DNA from: an uncultured Desulfobacter sp.
Lineage (GTDB): Bacteria; Desulfobacterota; Desulfobacteria; Desulfobacterales; Desulfobacteraceae
NCBI GenBank assembly: GCA_963665095.1
Contig: OY762069.1
Location: forward strand, 4,544,001-4,608,000
Reading direction: 5' to 3'
Length of the DNA stretch: 64,000 nucleotides
Shown here: piece after piece, positions 10,419-23,968 of the stretch
Position numbering within the stretch: the first letter of the stretch is position 1
Layout of the letters: every line of letters starts with the position of its first letter
Program-made: the position numbers and the translations under genes
Notes under the pieces: model-generated
Told to the model about the DNA's origin: nothing
Databases searched by the model: none
What the model saw: the letters and a program-made list of their open reading frames with translations, nothing else

Positions 10419-11279
10419 TTAAATGGCCCGGGCCATGACAGGCAGGCTTTCTGCTGAATATAGCTTAAAAACATTTTCCACCAGGTCAGGCGCCTGGCCT
10501 TCGGACTTTTTGCGTGTCTCTTCATAGGAGAGATCAATGACATCTGAGTCTGCCACAAAAAAGAAATGGTGAAGGTTTTTTTCCATGGGAGCCCGGCTAT
10601 AGGCCTTTTCATACGCCTCTACCATGGTATTCAGGTCCAGGCGCAACGCCACGGCAGGATTCCCGTTTACATAGGAATAGGAGGACATCCAGCCAATTTT
10701 TTCAAACAACAGGATATCTTCATAAATGTTAAGATACTTGGGATGAACCGTGATCAGCAGATCATCTGCCTTCAGATGCCAGGCAGCATAATGCAGGATC
10801 AACCGGTTGCCCAGCATGGGAAGATTTTTATTTCCTTTTCTGAATGCCGGATTTGAAGCCAGACAGCCGGCCTCCACAACGCGACGCCCCTGATTTCTTA
10901 AAGTATCCACTTCCTTTTGAAAAGCTTCGTCCATGGGAAGCCCCAGTTCGTTGTCAGAAAACAGACTGATCGTATATAGAGGCATCTGCATGGCCTGATC
11001 ATCCCGGAGGCATCCCATAAACACTCTGGATTCCGGGTCTTTGTGGTGGGGAACAACTCTGATGGGGACGCTGGACGGGTTTGAAAAACCGGCTTCCACA
11101 TAGACGTCGTGGAGGAGTCTGAAGCACCGGATATAATCCTCAACCGTTACAGCCGGACGCAAAACAATCTCTTTAAGGTCTGTATGAAGTGCCGGCAACC
11201 CGGCGCGAACGGTTTTTTTTCTGAAGTCTGCCGGAAGGCAGTGCATTAATTTTCTTTTCAATCGTTCCGGTATCTGCAT
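10419..11279 (-). CDS. FeeM-like N-acyl amino acid synthase / GNAT-fold acyltransferase
   Basis: FRLLHDVYVEAGF, GLPMDEAF, VVEAGCLAS, LLITVHPK, PAVALRLDL resemble the FeeM-type family. Confidence 0.65.
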   Translation of the reverse strand: MQIPERLKRKLMHCLPADFRKKTVRAGLPALHTDLKEIVLRPAVTVEDYIRCFRLLHDVYVEAGFSNPSSVPIRVVPHHKDPESRVFMGCLRDDQAMQMPLYTISLFSDNELGLPMDEAFQKEVDTLRNQGRRVVEAGCLASNPAFRKGNKNLPMLGNRLILHYAAWHLKADDLLITVHPKYLNIYEDILLFEKIGWMSSYSYVNGNPAVALRLDLNTMVEAYEKAYSRAPMEKNLHHFFFVADSDVIDLSYEETRKKSEGQAPDLVENVFKLYSAESLPVMARAI

Positions 11280-11900
11280 AATCTCCTTTTTTATAACCGC
11301 TGTGCAATAAATCTCATTTTGTCAGGCCGGCCTTTGTCCCCGTTTCAGCCCGGGAACAGGCACCCCGTCTTCCAACAATTCAGATGAAAATACCAGATTT
11401 ATATCACCATTCTGTTATCAGACTATTTGGAAATAATCAAAGAATACTCTTGTTGATCCAAACCTTTTTTATAACTTCTGTGCCACGGTTATAATTTTAT
11501 TTGTTTCATAGTGAAATCTATCAACTTGTGTGCCAGGCCAAAAACTTTTTAACAGGGACTAAGGGCTCACCCTAAGAATCCTGTTGTTGAAGCATTTTTC
11601 CGAAATCCATGCAAATGGATTAACTTCCAAAGTTACAAAAATTGCATCCGGTTACATAAATTGCACTAAAAACCCCTTTGACATTGATAGAGATTCCGAT
11701 GCATCTGTCTGTGCCGGATATTTTTGACGACCCGGTTCTTTTAATGTATACTTTGTGTTAATTCATATTCAAACTGACTTCTCCTGAACCGTTTTTTTAA
11801 TCGCTGGAAATTCCTTGTGCACCTGTACAGATGCGACATCTTTACCCGTCTAAAACCTTTGCATCTTAATTAGTCCGTCATTGACACGAAAGGAGCAGAT

Positions 11901-12872
11901 ATGAACGATCAGGCGTCCCGGGTACTTCTTCAACGTGCCAGATTTTTCACCATTCTCAGGCGGTTCATGCGCGTGATGATTGTCCTGGTGATATGTTATT
12001 CCCTGGCGGCCATTGTCTATTCCACCCATGTGATTTACAAGGTCAAGCTCAATTACGCCGTTATTTTAGAGCAGTTTGGCGGAAAACGCAGTGTGGTGAC
12101 CGATGTGGGCTGGCATTACCGGCTGCCGTTTTTCACCCGCCTGGAAAAAGAGGTGCCTTTGATGAACCAGAACCTCAACCTCGGCGGATCACCCGACCCC
12201 ATAAAAATTATCTCCAAAGAGAACGTGGCCCTGTGGACCTCCGCGGTGATGACGTTTAAGATCAGGGACCTTAGGAGATGGGGGATTGAAAATCTTTTCC
12301 CTGAAATTCTGCTACAGGGCGATTTTGACGGTATTGCCAAAGATATCCTTCAGGGCAAGGAGGTCAACCGGCTTATCTCGGAGAGAGAAATCATCAAAGA
12401 AGAGATTTTTCAGGCCATGAAACACCGCCCCATCAATACCGATGGCCCTACTCTGGAGAAAAAGTACGGTATTGAAGTCGTTTCGTTTGTTCTCAATGAA
12501 ACCCGGTTTGGCGATAAACTGGTGGAGGCCACGGAGGAGAAGAAACGCCGCCAGCTCATTGCCGAGGCGGACAATTATGCTGCGGATCAGGAAGCGGACC
12601 GGATTCTGAAGCTTTACAGGGCATATCTTAACGGCATCCAATCCCTTCATCTGGCACTGGGGGGCCAAAAAGATCAGCCGGTGAGCCCCGATCTCCTGGA
12701 GTTTTTATCCCAGCAGAAATGGGCGACTGCCTATGAAAAAAGCCAGAATGACCAGAAGACATTCGTACTCCATGCCTCAGGGCAGATGCCTGGGTTGACC
12801 CTGCCGACTTCCCGGCCCCGGGTCATCACTGCTGGAGACCAAAAGCAGGATAAAAAAGCCGGACAGGAATAA
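11901..12872 (+). CDS. SPFH/band-7 (stomatin/prohibitin/HflK-C) domain membrane protein
   Basis: N-terminal TM, AVILEQFGG...GWHYRLPF, KYGIEVVSFVL and a coiled-coil tail (EEKKRRQLIAEAD); AAGGAG RBS. Confidence 0.8.
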   Translation: MNDQASRVLLQRARFFTILRRFMRVMIVLVICYSLAAIVYSTHVIYKVKLNYAVILEQFGGKRSVVTDVGWHYRLPFFTRLEKEVPLMNQNLNLGGSPDPIKIISKENVALWTSAVMTFKIRDLRRWGIENLFPEILLQGDFDGIAKDILQGKEVNRLISEREIIKEEIFQAMKHRPINTDGPTLEKKYGIEVVSFVLNETRFGDKLVEATEEKKRRQLIAEADNYAADQEADRILKLYRAYLNGIQSLHLALGGQKDQPVSPDLLEFLSQQKWATAYEKSQNDQKTFVLHASGQMPGLTLPTSRPRVITAGDQKQDKKAGQE

Positions 12873-12877
12873 TACCC

Positions 12878-15800
12878 ATGGCCAAACGCACTACAAAGCA
12901 GAAAACCTATATTACCCTGCCCGAGGGAACCATCAAAAAGATTGACTCCATGGTCTCCTTGTGGACTTACGACACCAAGGCCTTTGTCCGGTCCCGTCTC
13001 AATCAGTTCAGGCCTCCCAACCGGTTTTTCTCCTCTTTCAGATCATTCTTATATCTGATGGTCTTCATGCGTCGGGAAAAAAAGCGGATGAAAGTGCTCA
13101 ATGATCCGGCCATTCTGCGGGACTGGAAAAAGCGGTTCCTCTATTCAGGCGAGACCAACCCGGGTGCCTCCTGGAACAAGGTGATTGAAAAAGAGCTGAC
13201 CAAAGCGGAACTACACTACCTGATTGCCGTGCTGGACCGGGAACTGACCGATCTTCATGTGCCGGTGGAACTTGAAAAGATTTTTGATAAAATCTTTAAG
13301 GTCCATTTGCGAAAAGATCATATTGAAGATCCGGATGTCCCCAAGGCGCCGATCATGCTGGTGGAAGGAGCTTCGGGTTCCGGAAAAAGCGCCACTGTCA
13401 GGGAGGCCCTGGAAAAAGTGGTCTTTAAAAATGAAGTGGTTCCGGCTGTGGACTGGCGGCAGAAAAAGGAAAAGCTTCTGGCCAGATACAGCATTTTTAC
13501 CCCCCTTGAAGAGGTGGACCCGGAGTTTGCCCTGGAAGTTGCCAGGAAAAAACGGCTGGTATTCTACCGGCGGCTGGCAGGAATCCCGGTCCTGCGCCGA
13601 ATTTTTAGAAAAAGGATTATGGCCAGTCTTACCAGTTTTGAGGAGCAGGGTATTACTGTGGATTTTTCCGTAATCACCCCCAATGATTACCAGACGGCCC
13701 TGTCCGGAGAGCCGGGCAATTACTTTAAGCGGGCCATGGGTAACCCCAAAATGACATCCATCCGCCACGTTGAAGAGGCCCACTCCGCCTTTGGGAAATC
13801 CGACAACAGTCCCAGCGGCGGAATCGAAAAGCAGCAGCGCACCCTGATCGACACCACCAATATTGTGCTGGATGAAATCATTGACGGGCGGCGGGACTGC
13901 TTTCTCATTGCCACCACAGACCAGGCCCACCGGTTTGACTCGGCCATATACCGGCGCTTTGTGGAAAAAGGCTGCATCATTGACATTTCAAAATACTGGT
14001 CAAACAAAGAAAACCTTAAGCGCATCATTTTCCTTGAAATCCGGCGTCACCAGATCCCCACCGCCTATAGCCCTGATGCCGAGGCGCTTGACAGGGCTGC
14101 GGAAAAAATATTTGACGTTTTCAAAGAGAGAAGTCTGAAAATCAGCCCGGCCTATGTCAGAAAGCTGGTTGATTCCATCATCAACATACGAAGTGATTTT
14201 ACCCCTGAGCTCCTGGACAACACCATCCTGGTCCGCTCTGCCTTTGAGCTGGTGGCAAAAAACGTCTATGGAGAACTCTACTCCAAAGTGGTGGACCGCA
14301 TGGAACGAAACGTGGCCTGGGACGAATATGTGGGCGCCATTAAGGATAAATTTTCAGAAATGGCCAACAACTGCTTTAACTATGGGGTCAGCGAGGACAA
14401 GGGTGTGGTACTCACAGGGCCCCCGGGCTCGGGGAAAACATTTCTTGTGAGAACCTGGCTGGCTGCAAACACCAAGGTCCATGACATTGCCACAAGCCCG
14501 TCAGCCCTGCAGGACCCCTCCTCTCCGGTCCACGGGGCTGTGGCCAACCTGGAAAAGGTGTACGACATTGCCAAGATGATCGCACCCACGGTGATTTTCT
14601 TTGATGAGGGAGATGCCCTGGCTCCCCGGCGTTCTGCCACCGGTGGCCAGCCTTCGGATGCCCTGACCAATAAATTCCTGAACATCATTGACGGCGAAAT
14701 TCCGCTGAACAAGGTTTTCACCGTGCTCACCACCAACCGGCTGGATATCCTGGACCCGGCACTCATCCGGTCAAGGCGTCTGAAAACCCTTGAAATAACC
14801 GGTCACATGCGACAGAAGGATATTTTTGACATCATTAACAAGCTGCTGGATGCCCAGCCCCACCCAAGAAATTTTGAGGTGGAAAGGATCATTGAAACCG
14901 CCCAGCCCATCTGCAATACCCCGGCCGATTATACCTCCTTCACCCAGAAGGCCATTGCCCTTTGTTCCACAGAATTCAAGGTGGTGCAGAAACTGCGGGA
15001 TCTTGAAAAATCCACCCATACGGAAAAATTTGATTTTGTAAAACTCAACTTTAAAACCATCCTGGGTATTCTGGATGCAGTAAAAGCACCGCCCCTTCTT
15101 AAGTCCAATATTAAAAATGATCTGAAAAATTTTGTCTCCCACTATGACCGGATTCTTACCTGTGTGGCCCACGTCTTTGCTGAAAAAGAGTATCCCCTGA
15201 CCCTGACCCACCTGGAATCCGCCCGGCGGGAAATCTCCCAGAGCCCCATTCGGAAAGGGTCTGTCCAGGTTAATGAATTCCTGGAAACCGAACTGAGCCA
15301 GGAACCCCAGGTGGGATTTATCATTGGTGTGGGTGCCAATGATACGGCCGGCATGCTTCTGCCCATTGCCACCAGCCTCACCACCCGGATAGAAGGCCAG
15401 ACCATTATTGTCACCGGTGCCGTATCTTCATCCGCACCAGATGCGGCCCAACTGGACATGGCCGTCCAGATGACCCTGCAGTCGGCCCAGGAGGCCCTGA
15501 CCATGGTGAAAAACTATATCCAGGGACTGACTCCGGATATCAGTATTCCCTGGCTGCTTGGGGATTTTCTGCGCCGCCGCACCATACATCACCAGCTATT
15601 ATCCACCTCCTACAACGTAGGCGGTCCCTCTGCCGGTTATGCCCTGGCCCTGAACACCCTGTCGGCCCTTTTGCGCCTTCCTTTATGCATTGATTTCGGC
15701 ATCACGGGCGCCCCCTGGACCAAAGGTGTCACAAAAAGTGAAGTGGGGGGATCCGTGATCATTGGCGGCCACAGAAAAAAAACGGAAAAGGTGCTGCTCC

Positions 15801-16195
15801 ATCTGCGGCGCATGTTCATGCCCCTTCAGAATTACAAAGACCTGGAACCGGAATTCCTCATTGGCTACTGGCAGCGGCAAAAGGATATCATCGCTGTCAC
15901 CCATTTTGCAGATCTCATGCCTGAAATCCTCTACCTGGGCGATGAACACGAGAAGGACCTTGAGACCCTTGTGGAGATGCGGATAAAATCTAACGTTGCA
16001 GACTATTTTGCCGAAGAACAAAACCCGGATATCCAGAATGAAATATCCGTACTCAAGACAAAGATGCGGCAAAGAGCGGAAAATGAAATCCTTGGCCGGG
16101 TGCAGGCCATCTGCAGATACCTGCAGGACCCGGACCGGGAAAAATACATTTCCCATGAAAAAATTTTCAGAACCTATATGAGGCTCACGCTTTAA
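12878..16195 (+). CDS. Tandem AAA+ ATPase fused to a C-terminal Lon-type (S16) protease domain
   Basis: AAA1: GASGSGKS, HVEEAH, IATTD..FDSAIYRRF. AAA2: GPPGSGKT, IFFDEGD, TTNRLDILDPALIRSRR. Protease: IIVTG..QSAQEALT..IHHQ..GGPSAG..GITG..IGGHRKK. Confidence 0.85.
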   Translation: MAKRTTKQKTYITLPEGTIKKIDSMVSLWTYDTKAFVRSRLNQFRPPNRFFSSFRSFLYLMVFMRREKKRMKVLNDPAILRDWKKRFLYSGETNPGASWNKVIEKELTKAELHYLIAVLDRELTDLHVPVELEKIFDKIFKVHLRKDHIEDPDVPKAPIMLVEGASGSGKSATVREALEKVVFKNEVVPAVDWRQKKEKLLARYSIFTPLEEVDPEFALEVARKKRLVFYRRLAGIPVLRRIFRKRIMASLTSFEEQGITVDFSVITPNDYQTALSGEPGNYFKRAMGNPKMTSIRHVEEAHSAFGKSDNSPSGGIEKQQRTLIDTTNIVLDEIIDGRRDCFLIATTDQAHRFDSAIYRRFVEKGCIIDISKYWSNKENLKRIIFLEIRRHQIPTAYSPDAEALDRAAEKIFDVFKERSLKISPAYVRKLVDSIINIRSDFTPELLDNTILVRSAFELVAKNVYGELYSKVVDRMERNVAWDEYVGAIKDKFSEMANNCFNYGVSEDKGVVLTGPPGSGKTFLVRTWLAANTKVHDIATSPSALQDPSSPVHGAVANLEKVYDIAKMIAPTVIFFDEGDALAPRRSATGGQPSDALTNKFLNIIDGEIPLNKVFTVLTTNRLDILDPALIRSRRLKTLEITGHMRQKDIFDIINKLLDAQPHPRNFEVERIIETAQPICNTPADYTSFTQKAIALCSTEFKVVQKLRDLEKSTHTEKFDFVKLNFKTILGILDAVKAPPLLKSNIKNDLKNFVSHYDRILTCVAHVFAEKEYPLTLTHLESARREISQSPIRKGSVQVNEFLETELSQEPQVGFIIGVGANDTAGMLLPIATSLTTRIEGQTIIVTGAVSSSAPDAAQLDMAVQMTLQSAQEALTMVKNYIQGLTPDISIPWLLGDFLRRRTIHHQLLSTSYNVGGPSAGYALALNTLSALLRLPLCIDFGITGAPWTKGVTKSEVGGSVIIGGHRKKTEKVLLHLRRMFMPLQNYKDLEPEFLIGYWQRQKDIIAVTHFADLMPEILYLGDEHEKDLETLVEMRIKSNVADYFAEEQNPDIQNEISVLKTKMRQRAENEILGRVQAICRYLQDPDREKYISHEKIFRTYMRLTL

Positions 16196-21079: not shown

Positions 21080-23431
21080 TTATTGTTGTAAGGCAAAGTT
21101 GAGGAGGTCTTCCATTTTATCGGTAAAATAGAACTCCATTGTGGACTGGATATGGTCGGGCACATCCTCCATATCCTTCTCATTCCACTGGGGCAAAATC
21201 AGGGAACGGATACCGGCCCTGTGGGCGGCAATCACCTTGTCTTTGATGCCTCCCACCGGAAGCACCTCTCCCCGGAGGGTAATCTCGCCGGTCATGGCCA
21301 GGCGGGGGCGGACCTTTTTACCGGTGATCAGAGAGGCCAGTGCCGTAAGCATGGTGACGCCGGCAGAGGGCCCGTCCTTCGGGATGGCACCTTCAGGCAC
21401 ATGGATATGGATATCATGGGTATCAAAAAAGGTATCATCAACACTGAGCTGGTCAGCATGGGAGCGGATAAAGCTTAAGGCCGTGGATGCGGACTCTTTC
21501 ATCACACTGCCCAGCTGGCCGGTCAGGGTCAGTCCTTTGTTTCCCTTCATGGCCACAGCTTCCACAAAAAGGACTTCACCCCCCACAGGGGTCCAGGCCA
21601 GACCCACCACGACCCCGGGAACCTTGATCCGGGTGGCCATATCCGGCATGTTCTGGATGGGACCCAGGTACCCGGCAACATCTTTCTGGCCGATGGTGAG
21701 GTTATCGACTTCGTGTTCGGCAATTTTAGCGGCAACGCCGCGGCACACGGCCCCAATCCGGCGTTCCAGGTTGCGCAGGCCTGACTCCCGGGTATATCCG
21801 GAAATTATCTGTTTGACCGCGCCTGTGGTGATCTTGATCTGACCGGAATTGATGCCGTTGGCCTCCCGCTGTTTGGGAATGATATAACGGGTGGCGATTT
21901 TGAGTTTTTCTTCTTCAGTATATCCGTTGAGTTCCAGCACCTCCATCCTGTCCCTCAAAGGCGCCGGAATGGTGTGCAGTACATTGGCAGTGGTCAGGAA
22001 AATAACATCAGACAGGTCAAAGGGCACATCCAGGTAATGGTCAACAAAATTCTGGTTCTGTTCCGGGTCCAGCACCTCCAGCAGCGCAGATGATGGATCT
22101 CCGTGGTAGGAAGAGCTGACCTTGTCGATCTCATCCAGCATGAATACGGGATTTTTTCTGCCTGCGGACCTCAAGTGCTGGATAATCCGGCCGGGCATGG
22201 CCCCCACATAGGTTCTCCGGTGGCCTCTTATCTCTGCCTCATCTCTGACGCCGCCCAGGGCGATACGGACAAATTCCCGGCCCAGGGCTTTGGCAATGGA
22301 ACGGCCCAAAGAGGTCTTTCCGGTGCCCGGCGGACCGAAAAAGCACAGAATCGGCCCCTTGGAATCATTTTTGAGCTTTCGTACCGCCAGATACTCAAGG
22401 ATCCGTTTTTTTGGTTTTTCAAGGCCGTAATGATCCTGGTCCAGAATTTTTCTGGCTTCGGCAATGTCCAGGCGGTCTTCGGAAAAGTCATGCCAGGGCA
22501 GGGAGGTCAGCCAGTCAAGATAGGTGGAGGCCACCACATATTCGCTGGATGAAGGATGCATCCTTGCCAGGCGGTCCACCTCCCGGTCCGCCTCCTTGCG
22601 GGCCTCCTCAGGCAAATCGTTCTCCCGGATCAGGGCCCTGTACTCACGGATCTCCACAGATTCGTCATTTTCTCCAAGCTCCTCTTTAATGGCTTTAAGC
22701 TGCTGGCGCAGATAGTACTCCCGCTGGCGCTTGTCCATATCTTCACGCACCTGATTCTGGATCTTGGAACCCATCTCAAGGATTTCGAGCTGGTCATTGG
22801 CCAGCCGGGTGACTTTTTTCAGCCGCCTTGTCACATCCAGCAGCTCAATGACTTTCTGTTTTTCATGCACGGGAGCATTAATGGTGGAGGCGACCATATC
22901 GGCAAGAGCGCTGGGTTCCTGAATGGTTTTCACCATCTGGCCCATCTCCGGGGGCAGACCGGGCGAGAGCTCCACGATTTTGCCGTACTGATCCACAATA
23001 TTGGACATCAGGGCCAGATTTTCCTTGTTCCTGTCTGTATTCCGGCTCTTCAGAACGGAAATACTGGCATGCATATACTCCCGGTTTTTAAGAAATTCAA
23101 CCACCCTGAAACGGTTCATTCCCTGGATGAGCAACTGGGCCTTTTCATCTTCCATTTTGGACAGCTTAAGAATCATGGCCACGGTGCCGATGCGGTAGAG
23201 GTCGTCTGCCGTATGTCTGGAATCAATGTCCGAACGCCTGGATAAAAGAAGCCCCAGCATCCGGTTACCGGCCATGGCATCGTCAATCAGGTCAATGGCC
23301 TCTTTCTGGATCAGCACCAGGGGCAGCACCATTTTAGGAAACAAATTGGTATCCACGATGGGAAGGATAGGAAGATTGTCCGGAATATCGTCTGTGGTGA
23401 TGGGGACGGAGGAATGTTTTAATTCATCCAT
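21080..23431 (-). CDS. lon: ATP-dependent protease La (LonA)
   Basis: LON N-domain, GPPGTGKTS, RGHRRTYVGAMPG, LDEIDK, PKDGPSAG, GGIKDK. Confidence 0.97.
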   Translation of the reverse strand: MDELKHSSVPITTDDIPDNLPILPIVDTNLFPKMVLPLVLIQKEAIDLIDDAMAGNRMLGLLLSRRSDIDSRHTADDLYRIGTVAMILKLSKMEDEKAQLLIQGMNRFRVVEFLKNREYMHASISVLKSRNTDRNKENLALMSNIVDQYGKIVELSPGLPPEMGQMVKTIQEPSALADMVASTINAPVHEKQKVIELLDVTRRLKKVTRLANDQLEILEMGSKIQNQVREDMDKRQREYYLRQQLKAIKEELGENDESVEIREYRALIRENDLPEEARKEADREVDRLARMHPSSSEYVVASTYLDWLTSLPWHDFSEDRLDIAEARKILDQDHYGLEKPKKRILEYLAVRKLKNDSKGPILCFFGPPGTGKTSLGRSIAKALGREFVRIALGGVRDEAEIRGHRRTYVGAMPGRIIQHLRSAGRKNPVFMLDEIDKVSSSYHGDPSSALLEVLDPEQNQNFVDHYLDVPFDLSDVIFLTTANVLHTIPAPLRDRMEVLELNGYTEEEKLKIATRYIIPKQREANGINSGQIKITTGAVKQIISGYTRESGLRNLERRIGAVCRGVAAKIAEHEVDNLTIGQKDVAGYLGPIQNMPDMATRIKVPGVVVGLAWTPVGGEVLFVEAVAMKGNKGLTLTGQLGSVMKESASTALSFIRSHADQLSVDDTFFDTHDIHIHVPEGAIPKDGPSAGVTMLTALASLITGKKVRPRLAMTGEITLRGEVLPVGGIKDKVIAAHRAGIRSLILPQWNEKDMEDVPDHIQSTMEFYFTDKMEDLLNFALQQ

Positions 23432-23515
23432 TCTCTTTCCTTTTTAATAACAATAATCTTTTTCATAGGTTGCTATGGGGTACCTTACGCGAAAAGTCCG
23501 AATTGCTTATGGCTG

Positions 23516-23968
23516 TTACAGGGCATCAGCCGGCAATTCCCGTTTTGGGGGCGGATTTTTTCTTGCCTGTTTTCCCAGCCTGAGCTCAAGAAATCCATTG
23601 GCATAGGATGCAGATACCTTTTCCATGTCAATGACACTGGGCAGGTAGAGTACCCGCTCAAACTGTCCAAACTGAATTTCTGCCAGCCGGTAGGTGGCAG
23701 TGGGATCCGGCTGACTGCTTTTCCTCAAGCCCGAAATTTTAACGGCCTTGTCAGACAGTTCCACAACCATATTTTCCTTGCGGACTCCGGCCATTTCAGC
23801 CTGGATAATGATCTCATCCCTTGTCTCAAAAATGTCCATCTGGGGTCGCCAGACGCGTTTTGAAAAGCAGAACATGGGATTGACGGACTGAAACATCTCG
23901 TCAAAAGATTTTTCTTCAGTCTCAGGTGTTTCAATATGGTCCCCGAACCGAATCTCTATCTGTTCCAT
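23516..23968 (-). CDS. Hsp20/alpha-crystallin small heat shock protein
   Basis: PQMDIFET, AEMAGV, GQFERVLYLP, ASYANGFLELRL. Confidence 0.92.
   Translation of the reverse strand: MEQIEIRFGDHIETPETEEKSFDEMFQSVNPMFCFSKRVWRPQMDIFETRDEIIIQAEMAGVRKENMVVELSDKAVKISGLRKSSQPDPTATYRLAEIQFGQFERVLYLPSVIDMEKVSASYANGFLELRLGKQARKNPPPKRELPADAL

Follow-up and report, generated by a model that had tools for sequence, protein, structure and literature searches.

A conserved gene pair encoding an SPFH protein and an AAA-AAA-Lon fusion, a likely undescribed ATP-driven protease of sediment bacteria

In the known ATP-dependent proteases, particular motors are combined with particular peptidases. Cdc48-type unfoldases work with a separate 20S particle, p97 acts in endoplasmic-reticulum-associated degradation (ERAD), and the m-AAA protease with its prohibitins is related to FtsH with HflK and HflC. 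For HflK/C, prohibitins and erlins alike, it is still debated what SPFH cages contribute to proteolysis. FtsH combines a single AAA ring and an M41 zinc peptidase with transmembrane (TM) helices and a periplasmic domain contacting HflK, and HflK/C are its SPFH partners, with a periplasmic cage (available part of PMC12048511). For Lon, it is described in the available part of PMC9569914 that the catalytic Ser and Lys lie 42 residues apart in LonA and LonB, that the residue ahead of Ser is Pro in LonA and Asp in LonB, that the membrane anchor of LonB sits between Walker A and Walker B, and that LonC degrades unfolded substrates without ATP hydrolysis. Erlins have a lumen-facing SPFH domain and gather cargo for ERAD (10.1101/2025.06.14.659634, in part), and p97 is not mentioned in the main text of this preprint. 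NfeD, a membrane protein, has a ClpP-like domain and lacks an ATPase, and NfeD proteins are the operon partners discussed for SPFH genes in the available part of PMC2636767, its supplement aside. Here, a gene pair is described from a 64,000-nt stretch of an uncultured Desulfobacter sp. (contig OY762069.1, positions 4,544,001 to 4,608,000; hereafter the window), in which the gene of a membrane SPFH protein (gene 1, product P0002) is followed after a 5-nt gap on the same strand by the gene of a fusion of two AAA modules and a Lon-type peptidase (gene 2, product P0001) (Table 1). What was observed directly is how the domains are ordered, that the ATPase and Ser-Lys residues are conserved, that the two genes are strictly paired and that the protease lacks a TM helix. 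The reading preferred here, with a probability of roughly 0.55, is that a soluble hexameric AAA-AAA-Lon protease would be docked under an SPFH microdomain and would degrade membrane proteins there.

The conservation of P0001 was evaluated in an alignment of all 253 collected full-length proteins (1000-1250 aa, down to 31-37% identity; P0343 left out as a non-member), the rows of which include close relatives and are not independent. Pfam Lon_C was matched at residues 799-990 of P0001 with 21.4 bits against a cut-off of 21.1, and more strongly in homologues (E 3e-8). Ser918 and Lys968 were each present in 253/253 rows, those of the 31-37% identical homologues included, with Pro preceding Ser and with Lys 49 residues after it in every row. 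With a profile of 18 C-terminal domains, the protease domains of archaeal LonB were obtained as the top matches (1xhk, E 1.3e-5; 1z0b; 3k1j), followed by LonA, and the two residues were in register with the catalytic motifs of the LonB structures across a 7-residue insertion, because of which the Ser-Lys spacing is 49 rather than 42. P0001 has, in other words, a Lon_C domain with the Ser-Lys dyad in register, by which membership of the S16 family was judged. Since Pro stands ahead of Ser, as in LonA, and the spacing is 49 rather than 42 residues, the catalytic centre is classed from its residues as A-type with a dyad spacing of its own, the overall profile being closer to LonB. The original prediction, made from the letters of the window, had described the C-terminal domain as Lon-like with both dyad residues kept, and this was borne out; peptidase activity is predicted from family knowledge.

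Two further proteins were encountered with Lon-like domains. In P0257 (595 aa), a caspase-like Peptidase_C14 domain (E 5.5e-18) is joined to a Lon-like domain of the P0001 family in which both Ser and Lys are replaced, which would represent the reuse of this domain as a non-catalytic module. P0343 (1145 aa) has a clear Lon_C with an intact dyad and no Pfam AAA match at E 1e-4, a different unusual Lon architecture; this protein and the ordinary LonA matches from the representative-protein search were rejected as members of the P0001 family.

The two P-loops begin at 13367 and 14417, where they had been expected. In the second AAA module (D2), Lys520, Glu577, Asn620, Arg631 and Arg634 were each found in 253/253 rows, and Pfam AAA was matched at residues 510-636 (E 1.5e-25). 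In the first module (D1), Lys170, Glu300 and Arg360 were found in 253, 252 and 250 of the 253 rows, respectively. The scan anticipated to give AAA twice, Lon_C and Band_7 gave the second AAA, Lon_C and Band_7; D1 had no separate Pfam stretch in P0001, and it had one in 3/5 of the homologues scanned. Profile comparison by hhalign, with loci labelled by NCBIfam as the Cdc48, FtsH and LonA reference modules, yielded for D2 probabilities of 99.9% to Cdc48, 99.8% to FtsH and 96% to LonA, and for D1, with its insertion omitted, 98% to the Cdc48 and FtsH modules versus 46% to LonA. Both modules are classed by these profiles as classical-clade AAA because Cdc48 and FtsH were matched above LonA, and the proposal of a tandem classical-AAA protein fused to a Ser-Lys Lon domain is upheld by the profile matches and the invariant residues. 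In the trees, D1 and D2 each formed a clade of its own outside the Cdc48, FtsH and Vps4-like rows, with long stems and three Cdc48 references. ATP hydrolysis is expected from family knowledge, firmly for D2 and less so for D1.

When P0001 was compared with the described families, no NCBIfam family reached its cut-off, the best being CDC48 (TIGR01243, 83 of 803 bits). Like Lon (MEROPS S16: LonA, LonB, LonC, LonBA), P0001 carries a C-terminal Ser-Lys peptidase in the same chain as the ATPase, and it shares with archaeal LonB, besides the overall profile, an insertion between Walker A and Walker B. Unlike Lon, it has two classical-clade modules in place of a single HCLR module. The LON substrate-binding N-domain and the Lon lid of LonA are absent (PF02190 and PF22667 not found by Pfam; TIGR00763, 33 of 608 bits), as is the LonA spacing; Asp before Ser and a TM anchor inside a single AAA+ module, as in LonB, are also lacking (TIGR00764, 33 of 517 bits), the insertion being basic and not transmembrane. 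The loss of essential ATPase residues by which LonC is recognized did not occur, as judged from the invariant D2 Lys, Glu, Asn and both Arg.

P0001 resembles Cdc48/p97/VAT in its two tandem classical-clade modules, and the best PDB matches by sequence were p97/Cdc48/VAT, for D2; in the profile comparison, D1 matched FtsH modules as well as it did Cdc48 modules. It differs in having the peptidase built in, no ubiquitin step, a possibly separate position in the trees and no CDC48_N (PF02359 and PF02933 not found by Pfam). The earlier description as Cdc48-like is accordingly retained for the tandem arrangement and given up for the N-domain and the family score. The pair is like FtsH-HflK/C in that a classical-clade AAA motor and a peptidase share one chain and are paired with an SPFH protein predicted to be periplasmic; it is unlike FtsH-HflK/C in having two rings, a Ser-Lys peptidase instead of M41 (no PF01434), no TM helix on the protease, and a single SPFH gene instead of paired hflK and hflC. 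With the SPFH-NfeD operons (SPFH1, SPFH2, SPFH5/FloA) it shares the two-gene arrangement of SPFH and protease, the partner of SPFH here being a soluble AAA-AAA-Lon fusion. By these sequence comparisons, P0001 is not a member of any family tested, failing membership of LonA, LonB, Cdc48 and FtsH. The Lon_C architecture table in the available part of PMC2605481 has no AAA-AAA-Lon_C entry, although its supplement could list a member without comment. In the open literature, searched with subscription papers outside the search and with most papers judged by the openings of their abstracts, no description of the AAA-AAA-Lon architecture or of its SPFH pair was found. Within this literature the architecture was found nowhere in print, which agrees with the first impression that no characterised system has it, and P0001 is likely an undescribed ATP-driven protease.

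The SPFH orthologue was located directly upstream of the protease gene in 61 of the 62 genome loci with upstream DNA (68 loci in all: 61 paired, one remnant (L057) and six without such DNA), and in 7/7 of the metagenome family loci with upstream DNA (n = 13, six without it). The gap between the two genes had a median of 23 nt over 63 pairs. For presence and absence, 46 genomes were selected from the phylum and family scans; the SPFH orthologue was adjacent in 12 of the 13 with the protease domain and found in 0/33 of those without it, the exception among the 13 having a protease fragment only, beside a DDE transposase. Both genes were present in 16/18 of the regions cut from genomes, and the other two were remnants. 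In the genomes checked, the two genes were kept or lost as a pair, and the linkage suspected from one locus is conserved in the genome and metagenome loci with upstream DNA. The distances of SPFH protein and protease were correlated with r = 0.96 over 46 pairs, a value expected from shared descent and not evidence of binding. As the genome of the window carries 11 other Band_7 genes, the SPFH gene beside the protease is considered a dedicated partner.

Three degenerate copies were recorded. At L057:5846-8040, an apparent deletion fuses the SPFH start (a 54-residue remnant) to the middle of the protease gene, which could be an assembly error; L193:6945-8346 is a fragmented second copy, and at L194:7304-7915 a protease fragment lies beside a DDE transposase. 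Outside the window, at G000:C1:5638096-5642176, a pair of Band_7 genes precedes an AAA gene, the order expected of an hflK-hflC-ftsH cluster, and the genome of the window likely has the standard hflK-hflC-ftsH system as well.

In P0002, Band_7 (PF01145) covers residues 48-232 (58 bits, cut-off 23.6) behind an N-terminal membrane helix, the arrangement of the SPFH superfamily, so the TM-anchored SPFH protein ahead of the 1105-aa protein was found as predicted. By the positive-inside rule, a Lys/Arg-rich flank of a membrane helix stays cytoplasmic. Among 64 sequences, the Lys/Arg count was higher before than after the helix in 60, tied in 4 and lower in none (means of 4.4 before and 2.7 after). 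Because of this bias and the rule, the N-terminus is predicted to lie inside and the SPFH domain to be periplasmic, like that of HflK/C. Stomatins, by comparison, face the cytoplasm with a membrane segment that is a Pro-containing hairpin. An alternative arrangement would have the SPFH domain in the cytoplasm, with an oligomer that encloses or caps the protease hexamer and gates the access of substrates. The strongly conserved C-terminal helical region of P0002, the modest size of the charge bias with its four ties, and the best PDB profile matches, which were weak and fell on stomatins (E 0.03-0.3), are in its favour. The hydrophobic stretch of about 19 residues without Pro, unlike the stomatin hairpin, the charge bias never being reversed, and the single NCBIfam match, a weak one to HflC with its periplasmic cage (E 0.008; TIGR01932, 15 of 134 bits), speak for the opposite side, and this direct cage is regarded as unlikely.

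In residues 1-800 of the protease, no 19-residue window exceeded a hydropathy of 1.8 in any of the 253 rows and no TM helix was found; beyond residue 800 this value was exceeded in 42/253, at a hydrophobic helix of the Lon domain. Because of the missing membrane helix and the requirement for ATP, the protease should be cytoplasmic. With the SPFH domain in the periplasm and the protease in the cytoplasm, a cage enclosing the protease or an HflK-like grip on it would be excluded, and the SPFH cage around the protease that the original prediction envisaged is doubtful. The spacing from Walker A to Walker B was 130 in D1 in 241/253 rows and 57 in D2. Residues 221-248, within the D1 insertion, formed the most basic stretch of the protease in all rows, with a net charge of +0.32 per residue (>+0.15 in every row, against -0.01 for the median of 270 windows).

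Under the preferred reading of a docked soluble hexamer, the two genes would be one unit, one of them for an SPFH protein in the membrane and the other for a soluble AAA-AAA-Lon fusion. From family knowledge, the fusion would assemble into a hexameric ATP-dependent protease and the SPFH protein would form a ring. The hexamer would dock on the inner membrane from the cytoplasmic side, under the SPFH ring, with the conserved polybasic insertion of D1 and the N-tails of the SPFH protein as its contacts, and would degrade proteins in or attached to the membrane that collect under the SPFH patch. Which ring pulls the substrate is left between D1 and D2 in this scheme, about half of the homologues having retained an aromatic residue in the D1 pore loop. 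The reading is supported by the invariant dyad and ATPase residues, by the pairing with a dedicated SPFH gene, by the site of the basic insertion, at which LonB has its membrane anchor, and by the known SPFH partners of membrane proteolysis (HflK/C with FtsH, erlins and the SPFH-NfeD operons), and docking under an SPFH patch is favoured because the opposite-side arrangement resembles erlins, in which the SPFH cage is likewise on the far side of the membrane from the degradation machinery. A wider proposal can be advanced tentatively, at clearly less than an even chance: the pair may represent a new class of self-contained double classical-AAA and Lon protease, common to Desulfobacterota and DPANN archaea, which, itself no membrane protein, would work from the cytoplasm and pull membrane proteins out of a microdomain fenced by SPFH, as a ubiquitin-free, two-gene prokaryotic counterpart of erlin/Cdc48/proteasome degradation with a ribbon-helix-helix (RHH)-like dimerising N-domain. 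The AAA-AAA-Lon chain shows that motor and peptidase modules are exchangeable, the fixed SPFH partner offers a two-component system for the role of SPFH cages when the protease has no membrane anchor, and the natural variation of pore loop 1, with an aromatic residue or Leu in D1 and no aromatic one in D2, offers a test of substrate grip by double-ring motors.

Several observations weigh against the docked hexamer. D1 is non-standard, with Glu for the Walker B Asp in 245/253 rows and Asp348 at sensor 1 in 238/253. Pore loop 1 of D2 is without an aromatic residue in 240/253, and that of D1 is Leu in 118/253, P0001 included (Leu275), so that the case for processive pulling is weakened, neither ring of P0001 having an aromatic pore loop 1. 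The double-ring unfoldase of the original prediction is left uncertain by the pore loops and the divergent, insertion-bearing D1. From the same features, an ATP-gated peptidase without unfoldase activity could be envisaged, in which the rings use ATP for assembly and chamber opening and only unfolded chains or peptides are cut, in the manner of LonC, whose degradation without ATP hydrolysis (available part of PMC9569914) provides the precedent. However, LonC lost its ATPase residues whereas all five tallied catalytic residues of D2 are invariant here, and Trp, Phe or Tyr is kept in the D1 pore loop of 135/253 homologues; this alternative is judged quite improbable.

The docking of the hexamer to the membrane is likewise weakened by the polybasic stretch, whose hydrophobic moment of 0.32-0.36 is only average (median 0.31). 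For the same reason the reading of the insertion as an amphipathic helix was rejected as unsupported, and the ligand of the stretch could be nucleic acid or an acidic protein instead of lipid. A membrane-tethered regulatory protease would make use of such binding, the SPFH ring sensing envelope stress, the RHH-like N-terminus and the basic insertion binding DNA or RNA, and specific regulators being removed. The strongly basic and non-amphipathic insertion fits this proposal, as do residues 9-44 of the protease, which gave the best match of 106 windows to a 16-sequence RHH profile. Against this, the RHH probability was just 46% with a small profile (17% for the next non-overlapping window), the N-domain profile had no PDB match below E 0.7 and no significant Pfam match (only a HicB-like one, E 0.21, in 1/15 sequences), and no conserved regulator gene flanked the pair in the loci examined; regulation of this kind is considered very unlikely. 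The docked hexamer is further weakened on the SPFH side, where the topology depends on a modest charge bias within related sequences and where the N-tail, which alone is predicted to lie in the cytoplasm, shows lower conservation than the helical C-terminal part. Decayed copies exist (L057, L193 and L194), and the pair is dispensable, 47/121 genomes of the family of the window being negative, two complete genomes of the same genus included.

Table 1. Positions, in the window, of the gene pair and of the elements assigned to its products.
Feature	Position	Strand	Basis or remark
Shine-Dalgarno-like site, 5 nt ahead of the SPFH start codon	11889..11895	+	read from the sequence
Gene 1, SPFH/Band_7 protein P0002, 323 aa (Arg-rich N-tail, one TM helix, SPFH domain, conserved helical C-terminal part to ~residue 302)	11901..12872	+	Pfam PF01145, E 1.6e-15; conservation over 46 rows
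Predicted single TM helix of P0002, residues 22-40	11964..12020	+	Kyte-Doolittle 2.25
Gene 2, P0001, 1105 aa (fusion of N-domain / AAA-D1 / AAA-D2 / Lon-type peptidase / helical tail)	12878..16195	+	
Possible ribbon-helix-helix-like element, residues 9-44	12902..13009	+	lead, not established
AAA module D1, residues ~128-445	13259..14212	+	Walker A Lys170, Walker B Glu299-Glu300, Asp at sensor 1, Arg359-Arg360 finger
Insertion of ~73 residues in D1 between Walker A and Walker B	13430..13651	+	predicted docking element
AAA module D2, residues ~476-700	14303..14977	+	Walker A, Walker B and sensor 1 all complete; second region of homology with both Arg; pore loop 1 not aromatic
Lon-type (S16) peptidase domain, residues 799-990	15272..15847	+	Pfam Lon_C; PDB profile matches to LonB; invariant dyad
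Dyad residue Ser918, Pro ahead of Ser	15629..15631		
Dyad residue Lys968	15779..15781		

The pair is a two-gene unit of sediment bacteria. The domain profile was positive in 74/121 genomes of the family of the window, as a single copy in most, and in 6/6 genomes of another family; phylum-wide, strong matches were obtained in 11/401 genomes and the other 223 were weak (E 5e-10 or higher), those listed being mostly frames of ~800 aa, as an ordinary Lon would give. The named relatives were Desulfobacter, Desulfobacula, Desulfotignum, Desulfospira, Desulfatitalea, Desulfuromonas, Geoalkalibacter and Geothermobacter. A search of 1.84 billion representatives yielded 115 matches, among which seven full-length proteins and one partial one, 31-37% identical, had the same architecture and dyad; the source labels were Woesearchaeota for P0247 and Nanoarchaeota for P0254 and P0359, and the rest of these distant homologues had no taxon. 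By a metagenome scan with the archaeal alignment, 13 family loci were obtained, all closest to bacterial members, and the tree of archaea and bacteria, an open polytomy (one-clade test, p-AU 0.458), favoured neither direction of transfer between the two groups. A locus titled Archangium, the only match in 151 genomes of its phylum, was set aside as a probable binning error. In the ESM Atlas, three unnamed Desulfobacterota clusters are similar to P0001, and rows 4 and 5 are archaeal AAA and Lon_C clusters (118 and 110 members, 909-919 aa, score 0.97 to P0001), mostly of Thermoproteota/Bathyarchaeota, which may be a sister family.

The patchy distribution in the phylum, the occurrence in distant archaea and the neighbours that vary even within one genus would suit an anti-phage or stress-suicide module, in which the protease would be set off at the membrane by a signal from a phage, as in ATPase-protease defence pairs. 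However, PADLOC 2.0.0 gave no full two-gene match to one anti-phage system, only partial ATPase-domain matches for gene 2 (IetA, TRIP13, mad8) and none for gene 1. Pfam, run on 66 neighbouring proteins, named no defence-type domain; 11 of these proteins had no match at all. Plasmids gave no match at 1e-20, phages gave AAA matches only (16-28% coverage) and viral contigs AAA-domain matches only, none of full length, and the pair is conserved at a high level and mostly in single copy across whole genera. The anti-phage role put forward originally has accordingly found little support, and such a function is highly improbable.

In the window, the genes next to the pair lie on the opposite strand, a FeeM-like gene upstream and DUF945, recD2, lonA and hsp20 downstream. 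The GC3 of the pair (0.62) is similar to that of the neighbouring genes, and a recent acquisition of the pair was ruled out by GC and GC3. A promoter scan of 11250-11910 gave 3 sites versus 2.0 expected, no evidence for a promoter. The FeeM-like gene (10419-11279, minus strand; PF21926, E 6e-36), a stand-alone N-acyl amino acid synthase gene divergent from the pair, was not kept beside it in other genomes. The lonA gene lies within ~6 kb of the pair in the window (21080-23968) and in three regions of the same genus (L183, L184, L185), and in two other loci (L199:5608-6060; L107:1644-2090) the pair is directly followed by hsp20 on the same strand. Genes of quality control are thereby found repeatedly near the pair, which may be due to chance. 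The most frequent neighbour was a convergent second SPFH-protease operon (nfeD1b-floA-unknown gene), with floA in 25/68 loci (L005, L006, L007 and others, downstream on the opposite strand; L190:12114-13094, L194:5522-6505), which may reflect shared ancestry of the region or functional clustering. One further locus has an additional Band_7 gene (L197:10824-11849), which is on the opposite strand, ~320 nt upstream of the pair.

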